A stretch of 64,000 nucleotides of DNA from Chiloscyllium plagiosum (lineage: Eukaryota). A model generated the notes under the pieces. It was not told the origin of the DNA. It did not search any database and saw only the letters and a program-made list of their open reading frames with translations. Positions within the stretch are counted from its first letter, which is position 1; every line of letters starts with the position of its first letter. The position numbers and the translations under genes are program-made. This document shows positions 6,226 through 52,975 of this stretch, piece by piece. The stretch lies in the NCBI RefSeq assembly GCF_004010195.1, contig NC_057718.1:105168300-105232299 (forward strand), written 5' to 3'.

Positions 6226-6553
6226 GTTTTTTTTATTCATTCACTGGATGTACATATTTCTGGCTAGGCCAGCATTTATTGCCCATCCCTAATTGCCCAG
6301 CGGGCAGTTAAGAGTCACCCACTTTGCTGTGTGTCTGGAATCACATTTAGGCCAAACCAGGTAAGGATGGCAGTTTCCTTCCCTAAAGGATGTTAGTGAA
6401 CCAGGTGGGTTTCTTCTGACAACCAACAGTGGTTTCATGGCCTTTGTGCTTTATTGAATTTAAATTCCACCATCTGCCCAGGCAGGATTTGAACTCAGAT
6501 CCCAGAACATTAGCTGAGTTTCTGGTGATAATACTACTATGCCGTTGCCTCCC
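6226..6553 (-). mobile_element. tRNA-derived SINE (second family)
   Basis: Reverse complement of the 19031-19372 copy (gggcaataaatgctggcc tail, ggttcaaatcc B-box). Confidence 0.75.
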
Positions 6554-19030: not shown

Positions 19031-19372
19031 GAGGAGGCAGTGGCCTAGTGGTATTATCGCCAGGCTGTTAATCCAGAGACCCAGGTAATGTTCTGGGCAT
19101 CCGGGTTCAAATCCCGTCACGGCAGATGGAATTTGAATTCAACAAATATCTGGAATTAGGTCCATGAATCCATTGTCAATTGTCGGGAAAGAGCTATCTG
19201 GTTCACTAATCTTCTTTAGAGAAGGAAATGGCCAGCCTTACCTGGTCTGGCCTATATGTGACTCCAGACCCACAGCAACATGGTTGACACTTAAGTGCCC
19301 ACTGGGCATTTACAGATGGGCAATAAATGCTGGTCTGGCCAGTGATATTTTCATCCCATGAATTAATTCAAA
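19031..19372 (+). mobile_element. tRNA-derived SINE, full length
   Basis: A-box gtggcctagtgg, B-box ggttcaaatcc, tail gggcaataaatgctgg...catcccatgaat. Related copies at 1-120, 6226-6553, 51390-51583 and 54405-54960. Confidence 0.8.
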
Positions 19373-32677: not shown

Positions 32678-35600
32678 GAACGAAGAACAATACAGCACAA
32701 GAACAGGACCTTTGGCCCTCCGAGCCTGCACTGGTGCATTTTGCCCTTCCCTGCTAAACCTGTCTTCACTTACAGGCTCTGTATTCCTCTGTTCCCTTTC
32801 TATTTATGTATTTGTCCAGGTGCTTCTTGAATGCTATTACTGTGTCTGCTTCTATCACCTCCTCTGGCAGTGTGTTCCAGGCACTCACCACCCTTTGTGT
32901 GAAGAACTTGCTTTGCGCATCTCTTTTAAACTTCCCACCTTGCATCTTGAATCTGTGTTCCTGAGTAATTGACCCCTCCAACCTGGTAAATAGCCTCATA
33001 CTTTCCACTCTATCCATAGCCATTCACAATCTTATGAACTTCTGTTAAGTTGCCCCTCGACCTCATGCGTTCCATTGAAAACAAACCCTGTTTACAAACC
33101 TAGGATGCATTCTCCATGGCAATACCCTACTTACCAGAGTCACCACTTGCCAACCAATCAGTACTCTGTTCTCATGCATACAAGTGTTGAGCTTCCCCTC
33201 TAGTTAGTATTCTTGTGAATAATCCTGATGAGTGGAAAACAAAAAGCTTCAACAAAATGTGTCCTTCACTAATACACGTTCTGTATTACAAAACCATTAC
33301 TTATAGTTCAGCCTCTGGAACCTGGACTTTCATGGAATCCCTTTGATAAAATGAAGGCTCCTCCTTCATCTATAGCCTAGCCTTGGCAATTTCCATCAGA
33401 GCTTTTATAAATGCAAAATGATCCTTCTGAACATTCGTCTAGAAATCTTTAACATGGATCTTTGCCAAGAGCCACAGCAGCTTATTGTTTCTGATGCAGC
33501 AGGATCAGTGTTTTTGTGTTTAGAAATGTTTGTTTGAATTGAATTTGCTCTATCTGTATTTTGCTCATAGTGATAAAAGTGCCCTGTAGTCACTTTGTCA
33601 CATGTAAATGATTACCTTAGTCCCATTGTATTCCATCTGCCACTTTTTTGTCCCACTTTCCTAAATTCTCCCAAGTCCATCCACAGCCTCCCCACTTCTT
33701 CAGCATTACTTGTCCCTCTACCCTATCATCGTGTCATCTGCAACAATGTCCTCAGTTCCTTCATCCACTTCGTTACTTTATATCGTGAATAGTTGTGGTC
33801 CCAACATGGACCTCTGGAACTCCATTCGACACCAGCTGCCATCCTGAAAAAGATCCTTTTATCCCCACACTCTGCCTTCAGCTATTCCTCTCTCCCTGTC
33901 AGTATCTTAGCTTATTGAGCAGCCTCCTGTGTGGCATCTTGTCAAAGGCCTCCTGGAAATCCAAATAGATCACATCCTCCTTTGTCTAACTTGCTTGTTA
34001 CCGCCTCAAAGAATTTAAAACATTTGTCAGGCATGACCTTCCTTTGAGGAAGCTGTGCTGTCTGAGCCCAATTTTACTATGCACTTTCAAGTACTCTGCA
34101 ATTTCAGCCTTATTAGCGAATTCTAAAATCTTATTAATGATTGCGGTTAGGCTAACTGCCTCCCCTACCCTCCTTAAACTGGGGTGTTAGATTAGTAATT
34201 TTCCAGTGCTCTGAGATCCTCCCTAATTCCAGTGATTCCTGAAAGCTTACCACCAATGCCTTAGTTGTCTCCTTCAGAACCTGGGGTGTAGTCATAGTAT
34301 CATAGCGATGCACACGCACGGAAACAGACCCGTCGGTACAAACCAGATATTCTAAATTCATCGAGTCCCACCTGCCAGCACTTGACCCGTATCCCTCTAA
34401 ACCCTTCCTATTTGTATACCAATCCAGATGCCTTTTAAATGTACCAGCCTCCTCCACTTCCTCTGGCAGCTCATTCCATACACGCACCACCCTCTGCGTG
34501 AAAAAGTTGCCCCTTAGGTCCCTTTTAAATCATTCCCCTTTCACCTTAAACCCATGCCCTATAGTTCTGGACTCCCCCACCCATGGAAAAATACCTTGTC
34601 TACTTACCCTATCCATGGCCCTCATGAGTTTATAAACCTCTATCAGGTCACCCCTCAGCCTCCAACGCTCCAGGGAAAACAGCCCTAGCCTGTTCAGCCT
34701 CTCCCTGTAGCTCAAACCCTCCAACCCTGGCAACATCCTTGTAAATCTTTTCTGAACCCTTTTAAGTTTCACAATATCCTTCCTATAGGAGGGAGACCAT
34801 AATTGCACACAGTACTCCAAAAGTGGCCGAATTAACATGACCTCCCAACTCCTATTCACAATACTCTGACCAATAAAGGAAAGTATACCCAACGCTGCCT
34901 TCACTATCCTATCTACCTGCGACTCCACTTTCAAGGAACTGTGAACCTGCACTCCAAGGTCTCTTTGTTCAGCAACACTCCCTAGGACCATACCATTAAG
35001 TGTATAAGTCCTGCCCTGAATTGCCATTCCACTTATCTAAATTAAACTCCATCTGCCACTCGGCCCATCTGATCAAGATCCCGTTGTACTCTGAGTAACC
35101 TTCTTCACTGTCCACTGAACCTCCAATTTTGGTGTAATTTACAAACTTGCTAACCGTACTTTGTGTTCACATTGAAATCATCTATATAAATGCTGAAAAG
35201 TAGTGGACCCAGCACTGATTCTTGCAGCATACCACTGGTCACAAGCCTCCAGTCTGAGAAGCAACCGTCCATCACCACCCTCTGTCTTCTACCTTTGAGC
35301 TAGTTCTATATCCAAGTGACTACTCCCTGTATTCCATGCAATCTAACCTTACTAATCAGTCTACCATGAGGAACCTTGTTGAATGCCTTACTGATGTTCA
35401 TATAGATCATGTCCACCTCTCCACCCTCATCAATCCTCTTTGCTATTTCTTCAAAAAACTCAATCAAGTTAGTGAGCCATGATTTCCCATGCATAAAGCC
35501 ATGTTGACTATCCCGAATCAGTCCTTGCCTTTCCAAATACATGTAAATCCTGTCCCTCAGAATTCCCTGCAATAACTTGCCTACCACCGGTCTATAGTTC

Positions 35601-36030
35601 CCTGACTGTTCCTTACCGCCCTTCTTAAACAGTTGCACTATGTTTGCCAACCTCCAGTCTTCCGGGACTGCACCTGTGACGATCGATGATTCAAATATCT
35701 CAGCAAGGGGCCCAGCAATCACTTCTCTAGCTTCCCTGAGAGTTCTCGGGTGCACCTGATCAGGTCCTGAGGATTTGCCCACTTTTAAGCGTTTTAAGGC
35801 GTCCGGCACCACCATCTCTGTAATATGGATATTTCTCAAGATGTCACCATCTATTTCTCCACATTCCATATCTTCCATGTCCTTGTCCACAGTAAACACT
35901 GATCAAAATCCTCATTTAGTATCTTCCCCATCTCCTGTGGTTCCACACAAAGACTGCCTTGCTGATCTTTGAGGAGCCCTATTCTCTCCCTAGTTACCCT
36001 TTTGACCTTAATGTATTTATAAAATCTATT
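32678..36030 (-). mobile_element. Cluster of CR1 LINE fragments
   Basis: Minus ORFs 32766..33023, 34530..35027 and 35306..35899 (PEDWRLANI...SQHGFMHGKSWLTNLIEFFEE...KAFNKVPH). Confidence 0.85.
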
Positions 36031-37793: not shown

Positions 37794-38293
37794 NNNNNNN
37801 NNNNNNNNNNNNNNNNNNNNNNNNNNNNNNNNNNNNNNNNNNNNNNNNNNNNNNNNNNNNNNNNNNNNNNNNNNNNNNNNNNNNNNNNNNNNNNNNNNNN
37901 NNNNNNNNNNNNNNNNNNNNNNNNNNNNNNNNNNNNNNNNNNNNNNNNNNNNNNNNNNNNNNNNNNNNNNNNNNNNNNNNNNNNNNNNNNNNNNNNNNNN
38001 NNNNNNNNNNNNNNNNNNNNNNNNNNNNNNNNNNNNNNNNNNNNNNNNNNNNNNNNNNNNNNNNNNNNNNNNNNNNNNNNNNNNNNNNNNNNNNNNNNNN
38101 NNNNNNNNNNNNNNNNNNNNNNNNNNNNNNNNNNNNNNNNNNNNNNNNNNNNNNNNNNNNNNNNNNNNNNNNNNNNNNNNNNNNNNNNNNNNNNNNNNNN
38201 NNNNNNNNNNNNNNNNNNNNNNNNNNNNNNNNNNNNNNNNNNNNNNNNNNNNNNNNNNNNNNNNNNNNNNNNNNNNNNNNNNNNNNNNNNNNN
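37794..38293. other. Assembly gap (500 N)
   Basis: Exactly 500 consecutive N, a round placeholder length. Confidence 1.
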
Positions 38294-42310: not shown

Positions 42311-42937
42311 CGCTGAAAATGTGTTGCTGGAAAAGCGCAGCAGGTCAGGCAGCATCCAGGGAACAGGAAAATCGACGTTTCGGGCATAAGCCCTTCAGGA
42401 ATGAGGAAAGTTTGTCCAGCAGGCTAAGATAAAAGGTAGGGAGGAGGGACTTGGGGGAGGGGCGTCGGAAATGTGATAGGTGGAAAGAGGTCAAGGTGAG
42501 GGTGATAGGTCAGACTGGGGTGGGGGCGGAGAGGTCGGGAAGAAGATTGCAGGTTAGGAAGGCGGTGCTGAGTTCGATGGATTTGACTGAGACAAGGTAT
42601 TTCCCCTCCCCCCACCTTGTCTCAGTCAAATCCATCGAATTCAGCACCGCCTTCCTAACCTGAGATCTTCTTCCCGACCTCTCCGCCCCCACCCCAGTCT
42701 GACCTATCACCCTCACCTTGACCTCTTTCCACCTATCGCATTTCCGACGCCCCTCCCCCAAGTCCCTCCTCCCTACCTTTTATCTTAGCCTGCTGGACAA
42801 ACTTTCCCCATTCCTGAAGAAGGGCTTATGCCCGAAACGTCGATTCTCCTGCTCCTTGGATGCTGCCTGACCTGCTGGGCTTTTCCAGCACCACATGTCC
42901 AGCTCTGATCTCCAGCATCTGCAGCCCTCACTCTCTC
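42311..42937. mobile_element. Fold-back PLE-derived element (~290-bp arms, 15-nt loop) with hammerhead motifs
   Basis: Arms 42312-42598 and 42614-42903. 17-bp TSD ctgcagatctagaatag at 42294-42310 and 42938-42954. Confidence 0.92.
42814..42841 (+). ncRNA. Minimal hammerhead ribozyme motif (PLE-type)
   Basis: CTGAAGA-A-GGGC-TTAT-GCCC-GAAA-C-GTC: conserved core, 4-bp stem II, palindromic ACGT stem III, GUC site. Stem I is weak. Confidence 0.7.
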
Positions 42938-43993
42938 CTGCAGATCTAGAATAGTCTTGGCTGTATCAGGAGAGATTTCATTAGAGCCTGAGCTGTTGTG
43001 GAGTGAATCAGTGCTTTGAGGACAGGCACAAAGCTGAATGAAAAGAACTTCATTCATGAAGAGTATTATTTAAGTTCAGTTTATGCAATGCACTGATAAC
43101 ATAACCTCTCAGCATTCTCAACGTTGTTTGACAGCCTCATAGTGACCAGATGGTAAATAACTAATCTTACAATATTCCACAAACACACACTAACACTAAC
43201 ATTGCTGAAATATTCAAGGATTTTGCTCTCTCGGGCAGCCAGTTGGTAACTTCACAGTCAATCAACTCAGTTGTCATAACAAAGCTCCTCTGATATGCCA
43301 TTCAGTGGTTTCACTGCTGTAATAATTCTAAGCTAATTGACTAAGCATGATGTGGTGTAGGAAGCTGTTCATCCTATTGTGCTTTACCAGCTCTTCCAAA
43401 ACTCCGTCTTACTCTTTCCTTCTATCTTTACGATTCATCCAATTCTCTCTTGACAGTTACAATTTAAGTATTGTAAAAGATCATTTTTTAATTGTTTTTG
43501 ATCAATGTGTCATGGCTGCATTATACTTTGAAGAATAAATCCAAATCTAGGTTAAGAATTGAACAGCTGCTGTGGATTTGATGACCAATTCATTGTTATT
43601 GATGATTGAAGTGGTATTGAAGTTTGGCAGTTGCATTAAGTTCTCTGTGGGTATTCAGAATCATTGATGCTTACTAGGGCAAACTGTCTACTTTGACTTC
43701 AAGTATAAACGTGAATTTCCCATCCTGCCTCCCAGTGGCTGCTCAGTAACATCCACTAAAGGTGACCTGAAGGTTGTGGTACTGGTTTTAACTGTGTCCT
43801 TGTCCTCTCGTGAACTGTTTTAAGAATATTTAATACAACAAATATCAATTGAGGGTGGTGCAGCTCATCTGTGATATTATGCCGAGGATTTGCCCAGTTG
43901 TGTGACTCTATCCTTCTGCAAGAAACTTAACTTTGTATTTGACAGTAGCTATAGCTATAACACGCACTTCTTTTTATCTCTCTTCTTCCCCAG

Positions 43994-45082: not shown

Positions 45083-45175
45083 TTCCTGAAGAAGGGCTCA
45101 TGCCCGAAACGTCGATTCTCCGGCTCCTTGGATGCTGCCTGACCTGCTGAGCTTTTCCAGCAACACATTTTCAGC
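45083..45175 (+). mobile_element. 93-bp PLE-derived insertion consisting of hammerhead motif plus tail
   Basis: 16-bp TSD tatattcaacaaaccc at 45067-45082 and 45176-45191. Core CTGAAGAAGGGCTCATGCCCGAAACGTC at 45086-45113. Confidence 0.88.
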
Positions 45176-46498
45176 TATATTCAACAAACCCCAGTCTCTA
45201 CAGCTTGCTCTAGGAGTCCAGTGAGCTCAGAGCAGAAATTCTTGCCTGTCTCTTTCTGAAACAGGAAATGCATTTTTAAACCATATCCTCTCATTCTAAA
45301 TTCAGCCCCATAATGACCAGCGCGGACACAATAGGCTGAAGGAGCATTTTCCATGCTGTAAAACTCTATGAAATATTCCTGTCAAAACAGCTCATGATCT
45401 TTTACCTTTCAATGAGATCCGCTCTTATTCTTGGAAATTCTGCCTAGCCTGTGGGACCTTTCCTCATAAGAAAAGCACCTCCCACCTGCCTCAACTCCTC
45501 ATTATAGGTACCAAACAATGAGCAAATGCTAATGCGATTATATTCTTTTGTTAAACAGAGAGGCCAATACTGTATCCAGTATTTCAGATGTGGTCTCACC
45601 GATGCTCTGTACAATTGTAGCATCCACTATCTCAGCAGTTACTCATGTTAACATCTGAATCTGAAATTCAGCAGGGCCAAAGACTTGTCAGGTTTTAGTT
45701 CTAATCATTTTCTCTGTACCCTTTCCCTGGTTACTAGAATTGGTTAAAGTTCCCTGCTCCCGATCTAATTCTGATTTACTATTATTTCTGTGATGTTCTC
45801 TGTGTTCACTGTTACTGACAAAGATGTGAAATATCAGTTCATTTCCTTATTCTGCTAGTTCCTTATTTTCCATCATTACTTTCCTAGACTCCCTCTAAAC
45901 TAACTTTCTATCAGTTCAGTACAATTTTAACTTATACCATTAGCCACATAACCTTCCCTTAGAATCTTTTTTCTCACTGGGATATATACTTGCTTAGTAT
46001 TCTGAGATATATCTTTAAAAGTCTGCCAGTATATTTATACAGATTTATCCTTTAATCTAGTTTCCCTGTTTGTTCTAGCCAGCTCAGGCTTTGTAATAGT
46101 TTAAGTTTACAACAGTAGAGTGTGATCCACTTTCTCTCCCCCAAACTGAATGAAAAATTTGCTGTTTTATGAACTCTCTTTCCTGGGGTGCCTTTACAAT
46201 GAGGTTATTAATTATTCTTATCTCGTTTCACATGATCCAATGGTCAACCTTAGAACACATTGCTGCAGGAAACTGAATCCAAAACACACGATGAACACAC
46301 TATCTGAGCTCCCCTAGCCAATTTGATTCTATTTCTTAAGAATAGATTAAAATCACCCATGATTATTGTGGTACTTTTCTTACAAGTGAAGGGAGAGGAG
46401 TTGCTCTAAGATTTATTATTAAGCAATGTAGTAGTTGTGGGAATCACGCTGTTGAATGCTGGAAAGATGATCGGGAAATTAATCTGTTTCATCTGCAG

Positions 46499-50944: not shown

Positions 50945-51024
50945 TCCAGGGATCTCTGGATATGCATTTCTTCCACTAGAAAAAACAGGTCCTGTCCACC
51001 CTTTCCATGTCCTTCTCTATTTTG

Positions 51025-52203
51025 AGGAGAAAGTGAGGTCTGCAGATGCTGGAGATTAGAGCTGAAAATGTGTTGCTGGAACAGCGCAGCAGGTCAGGCA
51101 GCATCCAGGGAATGGGGGAATCGACATTTTGGGCATAAGCCCTTCTTCAGGAATGAGGGAAGTGTGTCCAGCCGGCTAAGATAAAAGGTAGGGAGGAGGG
51201 ACTTGGGGGAGGGGCGTTGGAAATGCGATAGCTGGCAAGAGGTCAAGGTGAGGGTGATAGGTCAGTCTGGGGTGGGGGCGGAGAATCAGGAAGAAGATTG
51301 CAGGTTAGGAAGGCGGTGCTGAGTTCGATGGATTTGACTGAGGAAGGGCAAAATAGCCTACTCCTGCACCTATTGTCTATTGTCTAAAGGAGAACCAAAT
51401 GAGTTTCTCCGAAAATCAACAACAGTTTCGTGGTCATCATTAGACTCTTAACCCTAGATTTTGTTTTTAATTAAATACAAATTTGACCATCTGCCATAGC
51501 AGAATTCAAACCTGGGTTTCCAGAACATTACCAGGGTCTCAGGGTTAACACTGCAGCGATAATACCACAAGGCCCCTGCCTCCTCTACATCTCCTGACAG
51601 TGCAGCGAGAAATGTCAACATGTGTGAGGTGCTCAGGTACTAAAGTGGGTCTTGAACTCTTAACCGCTGTCTCAGGGAAAGTGTGCTACCACTGAGATAA
51701 AGGACAATTTCCTCCATGTTTAGGTCTTCCGCGGCGTTGGAAAGTTTGACTTTGAAAGATAAAAACCCATGACAATTCTGCAAATCCCTGCCTTTGATCA
51801 GTGTCATTAAATAATACAGCAGATGCCCACAGAACGTGATTTGAGACTGCGGTGTTATTCACTCCATTGTCACTGCTGTTTTCCAACAGCTCAAAGTCAT
51901 TTAATAACTGAGTCATTTGTCTCAGTCAAATCCATCGAATTCAGCACCGCCTTCCTAACCTGCAATCTTCTTCCCGACCTCTCCGCCCCCACCCCAGTCT
52001 GACCTATCACCCTCACCTTGACCTCTTTCCACCTATCGCATTTCCGACGCCCCTCCCCCAAGTCCCTCCTCCCTACCTTTTATCTTAGCCTGCTGGACAC
52101 ACTTTCCTCATTCCTGAAGAAGGGCTTATGCCCGAAACGTCGATTCCCCTGTTCCCTGGATGCTGCCTGACCTGCTGCACTGTTCCAGCAACACATTTTC
52201 AGC
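51025..52203. mobile_element. Fold-back PLE-derived element enclosing ~570 bp of unrelated sequence
   Basis: Arms 51025-51342 and 51917-52203, same family as 42311-42937. 14-bp TSD ccttctctattttg at 51011-51024 and 52204-52217. Intact hammerhead core at 52114-52141. Confidence 0.9.
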
Positions 52204-52483
52204 CCTTCTCTATTTTGTAAATCTCAATAAATCAGCTTCTTCTAAGGAAAACAACCCAAGCCTATCCAATCTTCCCACCAACCTGCAATTTTCAAGCCCT
52301 GGCAACATTCTTGTTAATCTCCTGTCTGCTCTCTCTAAAGCGATTATGTTCTTCCTGTAATCTGATGACTAGAACTGTACACAACTCCAGCTGTGGTCGA
52401 ACTAATGTTATATAGTTACAGCATTGCATCCTGCTTTTGTATTCAATACCTCACCCACCTGAAGGAAAGAATCCCTTTTACTA

Positions 52484-52975
52484 CAGGCAAATTACTGCAA
52501 ATGCTGGAATCTGTTCTGAAAACAAAAAGTGCTGGAGATCACAGCGGTGCATCCCTGGAGCAAAAGCAAGCTAATGTTTCAAGTCTAGATGACTCTATCA
52601 GAGCTGAAATGAAGCGAGGACGGGACAGCATTTACGCTATAGTGGGGTGGGTGGAGTGCTAGGGGAGAAAGAATGTTGACAATTCACATAAGTGATCTGA
52701 GTGTGAGAATGGCAGAACAATGGTGTGTCTAACTGCCAGACTGGAAAGGTCAGACAGTCCCATTGATGTGGGGGAGGGGAGAGAGAGCATGGTGACAGAG
52801 AATGTAAAAAGCAAAACTAAAAGGAATGGGTTCACAATTTGACGGCATGTACTCAGTATTGAGTCCAGAAGGTGTAAAGTGCCTAGTCTGAAGATGAGAT
52901 GTTGTTCCCCCAGTTTTCACTGTGATTCACTGGAGCATTGCAGCATGCTGAGGACAGACGTGGGCATGTGAGCAG
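52484..52975 (-). mobile_element. Penelope-like element 3' end
   Basis: Reverse complement encodes ...KLGEQHLIFRLGTL..., as in the 56745-58157 element. Imperfect TSD gaatccct(t/c)ttacta at 52469-52483 and 52976-52990. Confidence 0.7.

Follow-up and report, generated by a model that had tools for sequence, protein, structure and literature searches.

Older chromosomal DNA within a PLE fold-back insertion

Between positions 51011 and 52217 of the window (the whole stretch of 64,000 nt that was analysed), two inverted ends of a Penelope-like element (PLE) enclose a length of DNA that belongs to neither of them. How did this DNA, referred to below as the cargo, come to lie at the centre of a fold-back element, and what became of its source? 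The fold-back structure was confirmed to be real, and the evidence supports a single PLE insertion made of two head-to-head 5′-truncated ends with trapped older chromosomal DNA. The event is a single, gene-free capture of host DNA of a known kind, and it is unusual in its templated joint and its missing donor.

A search with the cargo listed 24 runs, of which 18 contain part of it, at shares of 0.58-0.75 for organism A (studies P1 and P6) and 0.15-0.22 for organisms B and C; of the runs with shares below 0.2, only X12 and X13 were drawn on as evidence. The contigs of 4 of the 24 runs were aligned over 51310-52900, and 32 of 143,108 pieces, 15 of 225 joints and 24 of 2,510 loose ends were listed. 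The alignment filter omits some records, and contigs show presence, not absence. The parts of the insertion are as follows.

51011..51024, no strand assigned: left copy of the target-site duplication (TSD), 14 bp, an exact match to 52204-52217
51025..51342, minus strand: left (tail) arm, a 5′-truncated PLE 3′ end/pLTR with a mutated hammerhead core and 12 substitutions against the four-arm majority
51025..51060, minus strand: PLE "tail" of 36 nt, on the left arm only, reaching beyond the right-arm end; the elements at 1895 and 42940 each have the same tail on a single arm
51343..51386, plus strand: last 44 nt of a high-copy LINE, severed from its body at the left junction, 83% to the window LINE tail 40017-39988
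51392..51585, minus strand: decayed SINE, 71-83% to the window copies 19031-19175, 6443-6535 and 70-117
51586..51906, no strand assigned: unique non-coding DNA with an orthologue in B (51616-51906) and C (51616-51714) and no exact 14-mer elsewhere in the window
51907..51916, no strand assigned: junction filler of 10 nt, 6 nt of which equal the left-arm end and overlap 8 nt copied from 51895-51902; B homology stops at 51906
51917..52203, plus strand: right (short) arm, a 5′-truncated PLE 3′ end/pLTR without the tail, joined to the cargo in A contigs of two studies
52114..52141, plus strand: predicted minimal hammerhead-ribozyme core motif, a core pattern match
52204..52217, no strand assigned: right TSD copy, from which (at exactly 52204) B and C contigs align into the right flank without an arm

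The insertion and its arms

When the whole window was scanned on either strand, the 14-bp TSD was found in its two copies only. The chance of such a match is ~1e-8 at a fixed place, and 0 of 62,500 other position pairs matched at equal spacing. The earlier note had proposed that one 14-bp TSD surrounds the left arm, the cargo and the right arm, and with both copies identical and unique in the window this was borne out. The arms were likewise found where the note had put them, as inverted copies with 94% complementarity; their alignment contained 14 differences over 261 shared columns, and their two ends lie within 4 nt of each other. Beyond the right TSD copy, the flank at 52490-52850 contains older decayed repeats, one of which begins in a PLE-tail-like manner, and opposite-strand joints are present at 52545/52596.

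The hammerhead core pattern was matched four times in the window, each time within the arm family, and 0 matches were obtained in 100 shuffles; the mutated copy in the left arm is not among the four. An Rfam search at E<=5 returned three chance-level matches, none of them relevant and none to a hammerhead. Judged from its sequence features, namely the hammerhead motif, the adjacent inverted 5′-truncated copy, the one-sided 36-nt tail and the 14-bp TSD, the locus would be an EN+ PLE insertion. A Pfam scan of 19 of the 25 long frames of the window (the other six extend over the 500-N gap at 37794-38293) detected no PLE protein and no GIY-YIG; its one RVT_1 match, at 35306-35902 on the minus strand, is unlinked to the arms. 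That 198-aa frame is a LINE fragment.

Three more close members of the arm family were found in the window, two of them head-to-head with a one-sided tail (1895-2111 and 42311-42940) and one solo (45083-45176), all with TSDs of 15-17 bp. The arm-to-arm end offset is 3 nt at 1895-2111 and 15 nt at 42311. For the latter element, the 15-nt unpaired centre described earlier is present, and its arms and those of the 51011..52217 insertion do stop within ~25 nt of the same family position, but the supposed loop is itself PLE sequence: it continues the longer arm of the 42311 element and matches the loose-end consensus before 51917 in run X1, in which the arm family sequence runs on 5′ of 51917 in 36 contigs. 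Among the 24 of 2,510 loose ends listed, family members are most often truncated on their 5′ side at 52108-52111, a short way upstream of the hammerhead core. The equivalent position is where the short copies (1895-2111 and 45083-45176) end, the long copies end near 51900-51921, and both arms of any one insertion belong to the same truncation class.

The two arms at 51011..52217 share three bases against the 42311 arms, one of which is absent from the other seven arms aligned. Both arms also have C at the position of 52147, where run X16 of organism A reads T in 3,841,884 of 3,911,138 depth units (~98%). Because these rare variants are common to both arms, the arms were attributed to one template and one insertion. 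Two independent insertions flanking resident DNA, or an assembly chimera, would therefore have to explain the rare variants in both arms, along with a single exact TSD at the outer edges, a right joint that recurs in two independent studies and the lack of arm and cargo before the TSD in organism C. PLE palindromes do trouble assemblies, according to passages of PMC8557442, the arm family is very abundant, and the left joint was seen in no contig listed; even so, an origin of this sort is extremely improbable.

The arms differ in their number of private changes. The tail arm (51061-51342) carries 12 private substitutions and a 1-bp deletion, and the short arm (51917-52203) carries one substitution (p=0.003); the tail arm of the 42311 element likewise has more substitutions than the other arm, 9 vs 2. 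This excess could be of biological origin or an assembly error. ADAR editing and strand-specific deamination were rejected as its cause, given that no T>C or C>T bias was observed in the 12 changes. At the non-CpG column of 51940, read on the plus strand, C stands in the left arm and T in the right arm, both here and in the 42311 element, even though the tail arm lies on the left in one element and on the right in the other.

The cargo, its joints and its counterparts in other organisms

The cargo was indeed a mosaic, as had been suggested, with a LINE tail, a minus-strand decayed SINE and a unique remainder; the LINE tail may be CR1-type and the SINE head tRNA-type. By its SINE and LINE content, the window as a whole looks elasmobranch. 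Loose ends of LINE-upstream sequence were observed at 51343 in 4 of 4 runs, with 34-83 contigs per run departing there. Neither poly(A), a long ORF nor element ends were found in the cargo, which starts inside the LINE tail. Among the 15 of 225 joints listed, several other loci join the same LINE tail (51383-51386) directly to a PLE 5′ end (52109-52114), which suggests that LINE tails often adjoin PLE copies. Near the cargo start, 51350-51357 (8 nt) is the reverse complement of the last 8 nt of the TSD, and the cargo's first 5 nt likewise match the opposite strand of the TSD's first 5 nt; since the LINE tail accounts for that stretch, the 8-nt match was taken as probably due to chance.

The cargo and the right arm were found joined in organism A. 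Contigs of 585 nt (X16) and 584 nt (X1), which come from two independent studies, run unbroken over 51362/3-51946; they extend 40 nt beyond 51906 and cover the first 30 nt of the arm. Each differs from the window in 6 letters (6/585), and A may be a sister lineage. A 129-nt contig of X1 spans the right TSD with 0 differences; it has only 20 nt in the arm, which is below the 31-nt bar.

In organism B, a 490-nt contig aligned at 51616-51906 with 13 differences, a 19-nt gap, and 150 and 30 loose nt; this cargo orthologue is without arms, its homology stops at 51906, and it diverges at both ends. The direction in which minus-strand records are numbered was deduced from a mismatch common to three records, each of them clipped there by 2 nt, and this convention is uncertain. 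Because the B DNA beyond 51906 is not arm under either convention, the cargo is older than the insertion and was formerly elsewhere. Organism C aligned within the cargo at 51616-51714. The B and C contigs both cease to align at exactly 51616; the cargo may be of two pieces, or a repeat may have been inserted there in these relatives. B has 19 extra nt near 51714, and C probably has them as well. In X13, 3 of 30 bins, belonging to part of the cargo, were not covered, and nothing can be concluded from this.

A 277-nt contig of C, on the plus strand, aligns from its letter 124 at 52204, and the preceding 123 nt are neither arm nor cargo. Judged by the position and length of these 123 unaligned nt, C appears to have the empty site. 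The alignment of a 458-nt contig of B likewise begins at 52204; its 117 loose nt precede the TSD if the numbering of a record follows that record's own direction. An orthologous site that keeps the cargo without the arms, which would have spoken for separate insertions, was not seen: the 123 nt of C match nothing in 51310-52900, the cargo included. In time, the insertion falls between the split from C (1.9-4.0% apart) and the divergence of the window and A (1.0%). The capture of foreign genomic DNA in one PLE insertion, the central proposal of the earlier note, is thus supported by the single TSD, the one-template arms, the apparent empty site in C and the arm-less orthologue in B.

The sequence between the arms is foreign, but most likely its donor-homologous part does not extend to 51916, as had been assumed; it would end at 51906 (564 bp) and be followed by filler. 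The 6-mer actgag stands at 51337-51342 and at 51907-51912, and the latter is equally an inverted copy of 51921-51926. There is also an 8-nt direct repeat (51895-51902 and 51911-51918) that was missed in the earlier note. The 6-nt arm match overlaps the 8-nt cargo copy by 2 nt, and the 8-nt copy in turn overlaps the start of the right arm by 2 nt. When 20,000 random 10-mer fillers were drawn, the direct repeat occurred in 81, the arm match in 889 and both in 2, a figure that overstates the case because the randomisation was devised after the pattern was seen. Positions 51907-51916 are read as a filler templated from both neighbours, which is the mark of synthesis-dependent end joining (SD-MMEJ/Pol-theta-like).

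The 6-bp repeat reported around the cargo is therefore present and marks a real boundary, but templated filler is a better reading of it than a duplication. As a duplication it would be the TSD of a 564-bp unit nested in the palindrome centre. The 6-mer does flank exactly the B-homologous part, 51343-51906, and the terminal 6-mer of the left arm was found inside the random filler in only 66 of 20,000 trials. However, the cargo is single-copy in A and apparently in B, it lacks element ends, and a nested insertion does not account for the 8-nt repeat, which chance produced in 81 of 20,000 fillers; we regard such an insertion as very improbable.

The SD-MMEJ type of filler, templated within ~30 nt, is present at the right joint, and none was found at the left joint. 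There, at 51342/51343, no microhomology was detected against the LINE consensus, and the joint is apparently blunt. The left joint is absent from the 15 of 225 joints listed, and the A contigs begin inside the high-copy LINE tail.

Capture of the cargo and the fate of its donor

We consider it fairly probable that a chromosomal fragment was patched by end joining between two PLE cDNA ends as the insertion was sealed. The endonuclease of an EN+ PLE would nick both target strands 14 nt apart, and by twin priming each 3′ end would prime cDNA synthesis from templates of one kind, with one start at the tail site and the other at the tail-less site. Both cDNAs would halt at nearly the same place, as passages of PMC11167929 and the anatomy of the locus suggest. 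Usually the cDNA ends would then be joined directly, as in the 1895 and 42311 elements; here, end joining would have inserted a 564-bp older chromosomal piece between the two. At the right, the joint would have been made by short rounds of templated synthesis, with 8 nt taken from the cargo end and 6 nt from the arm end in an SD-MMEJ/Pol-theta-like manner, and the left joint would be blunt.

The capture could have occurred either at insertion or at a later break of the palindrome. In the latter case, a short-spacer palindrome like that at 42311 would have formed first, and a break at the hairpin tip would later have been repaired with ectopic DNA. Such a repair predicts the same junction signature, and palindromes are known to be fragile sites. 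The arm ends differ by no more than 4 nt and miss the paired ends of the 42311 element by only 3-7 nt, which would also fit a small central loss, although the arms of this family end close together anyway (3 and 15 nt in the two elements above). The 42311 palindrome, 9 kb distant, is intact, and no cargo-less joint was found among the 15 of 225 joints listed, which is a weak point against two steps. Overall, a two-step origin appears rather unlikely.

The earlier note had offered template switching by the PLE or ectopic repair as mechanisms. Of these, DNA end joining is favoured over transduction by the reverse transcriptase because of the junction filler. A template jump, in which reverse transcription passed the 5′ end of the PLE RNA and went on along a host RNA or DNA strand, with the donor later lost or now hidden, is improbable. 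Both arms stop near a common family position, as would be expected at a template end; passages of PMC3846280 describe PLE capture of host DNA in trans, and according to passages of PMC11702581, L1 inverted insertions can carry a template-switched middle piece. Yet the donor was not seen in two A runs, the filler is built from both neighbours, and the cargo lacks both poly(A) and a long ORF and begins inside a LINE tail.

For end joining between two cDNA ends, the source of the cargo is the remaining question. In de Bruijn assemblies, a second copy of the cargo should split the contig or add depth. In each of the A runs, the depth of the four consecutive bins over 51688-51903 was that of one contig (7.54 and 8.12; other single contigs, 2.9-9.9), and in a simulation a second copy up to 4.5% apart shared a 31-mer with the cargo with a probability >0.9999. 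These data support a single-copy cargo in A, with no second copy seen in runs X16 and X1. No near-identical donor was found in the window, in which no exact 14-mer of 51586-51906 recurs. An exact-pattern scan of metagenome contigs gave 0 matches. A donor scar was not found in the window either: all four other LINE ends with the motif upstream of the cargo start run past that point, and 0 of 18 LINE matches end there apart from the cargo itself, in a search that misses a scar with an extra deletion, inside the N gap 37794-38293 or outside the window.

The missing donor in A argues against simple copying. The fragment may instead have been excised from a linked site in the same event, a reading that we place slightly below an even chance; either the cargo was copied and its source later lost, or the donor is hidden, if it was not excised.

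Significance and relation to known systems

The capture of host DNA by PLEs has already been published (PMC3846280), and a possible non-duplicative move is the sole new point here. No report of non-duplicative capture at PLE centres was found in a literature search that covered few subscription papers and no supplements, and capture is absent from the passages of a 2026 retrozyme preprint. Passages of PMC11167929 and PMC8557442 state that the steps of PLE mobilisation after reverse transcription are unvalidated. Repair-type filler and trapped host DNA at the point where the arms meet favour two cDNAs joined by host repair over a self-primed fold-back. As a tentative generalisation, an open gap between PLE cDNA ends may take in a fragment excised from a linked site, a cut-and-paste in which the source is deleted and the fragment is kept only in the fold-back. 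Should the capture itself have removed the donor, retroelements would be able to move germ-line DNA without duplication; with thousands of palindromes per shark genome, the centres would then amount to a fossil record of how PLE integration is completed and also to a source of small non-duplicative rearrangements. The importance of the finding is limited in that it concerns one event, the cargo holds no gene, there is no functional sign, and the general phenomenon is in print.

Pack-MULEs carry host DNA between inverted repeats inside a TSD. The analogy with them drawn in the earlier note is weak: the unit is single-copy in A (X16 and X1), with no sign that it multiplied once loaded, and in place of TIRs the arms are asymmetrically tailed ends of a retroelement.

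A closer parallel is found in Adineta vaga, in which, according to passages of Arkhipova et al. 2013 (PMC3846280), unrelated sequences, non-coding ones included, were captured between solo pLTRs within TSDs, and an NRPS gene was moved between direct pLTRs, with an empty allele (also passages of PMC6431247). The present locus and the A. vaga captures, as far as those passages describe them, share unrelated DNA between pLTRs inside one TSD, and the A. vaga capture also has an empty allelic site. In the NRPS case, however, the pLTRs are direct and the copy enlarged a gene family, whereas here the ends are inverted and truncated, the filler is templated and no donor is seen in A. The locus thus departs from PLE trans-transduction of the NRPS type in its inverted arms and in the lack of a second copy in two A runs and in the window.

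In the parts of PMC8557442 and PMC11167929 that describe EN+ PLEs, the insertion unit has an inverted 5′-truncated copy and a one-sided tail of 30-40 bp; PAc cleaves and extends both strands, from two reverse transcription start sites whose distance is the tail (passages of PMC11167929), and minimal hammerheads occur in PLE repeats (passages of PMC6155905). As far as these passages go, the locus resembles the canonical unit in its head-to-head truncated ends, its one-sided tail (36 nt here), its hammerhead motif and its TSD, and differs from it in having no ORF in this copy and foreign DNA at the inversion joint.

For the right joint, passages of PMC5728401 report that, after SD-MMEJ, both direct and inverted repeats can be found no more than 30 nt from the joint, trans events included. 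The likeness to SD-MMEJ/Pol theta lies in an insertion that makes short direct and inverted repeats near the joint; the cases in those passages come from I-SceI breaks in Drosophila embryos, in contrast to the retroelement cDNA ends proposed here, where the signature occurs at one of two joints. Lastly, passages of PMC11702581 describe twin-primed inverted L1 insertions that are resolved by end joining, some of which hold DNA templated nearby, and one L1 insertion containing short pieces whose source, on another chromosome, is a region that was deleted. Such complex L1 insertions resemble the present locus in being inverted insertions with a middle piece of genomic DNA; in those passages they are somatic, experimental and poly(A)-dependent, whereas the insertion described here is a germ-line event common to the window and organism A.
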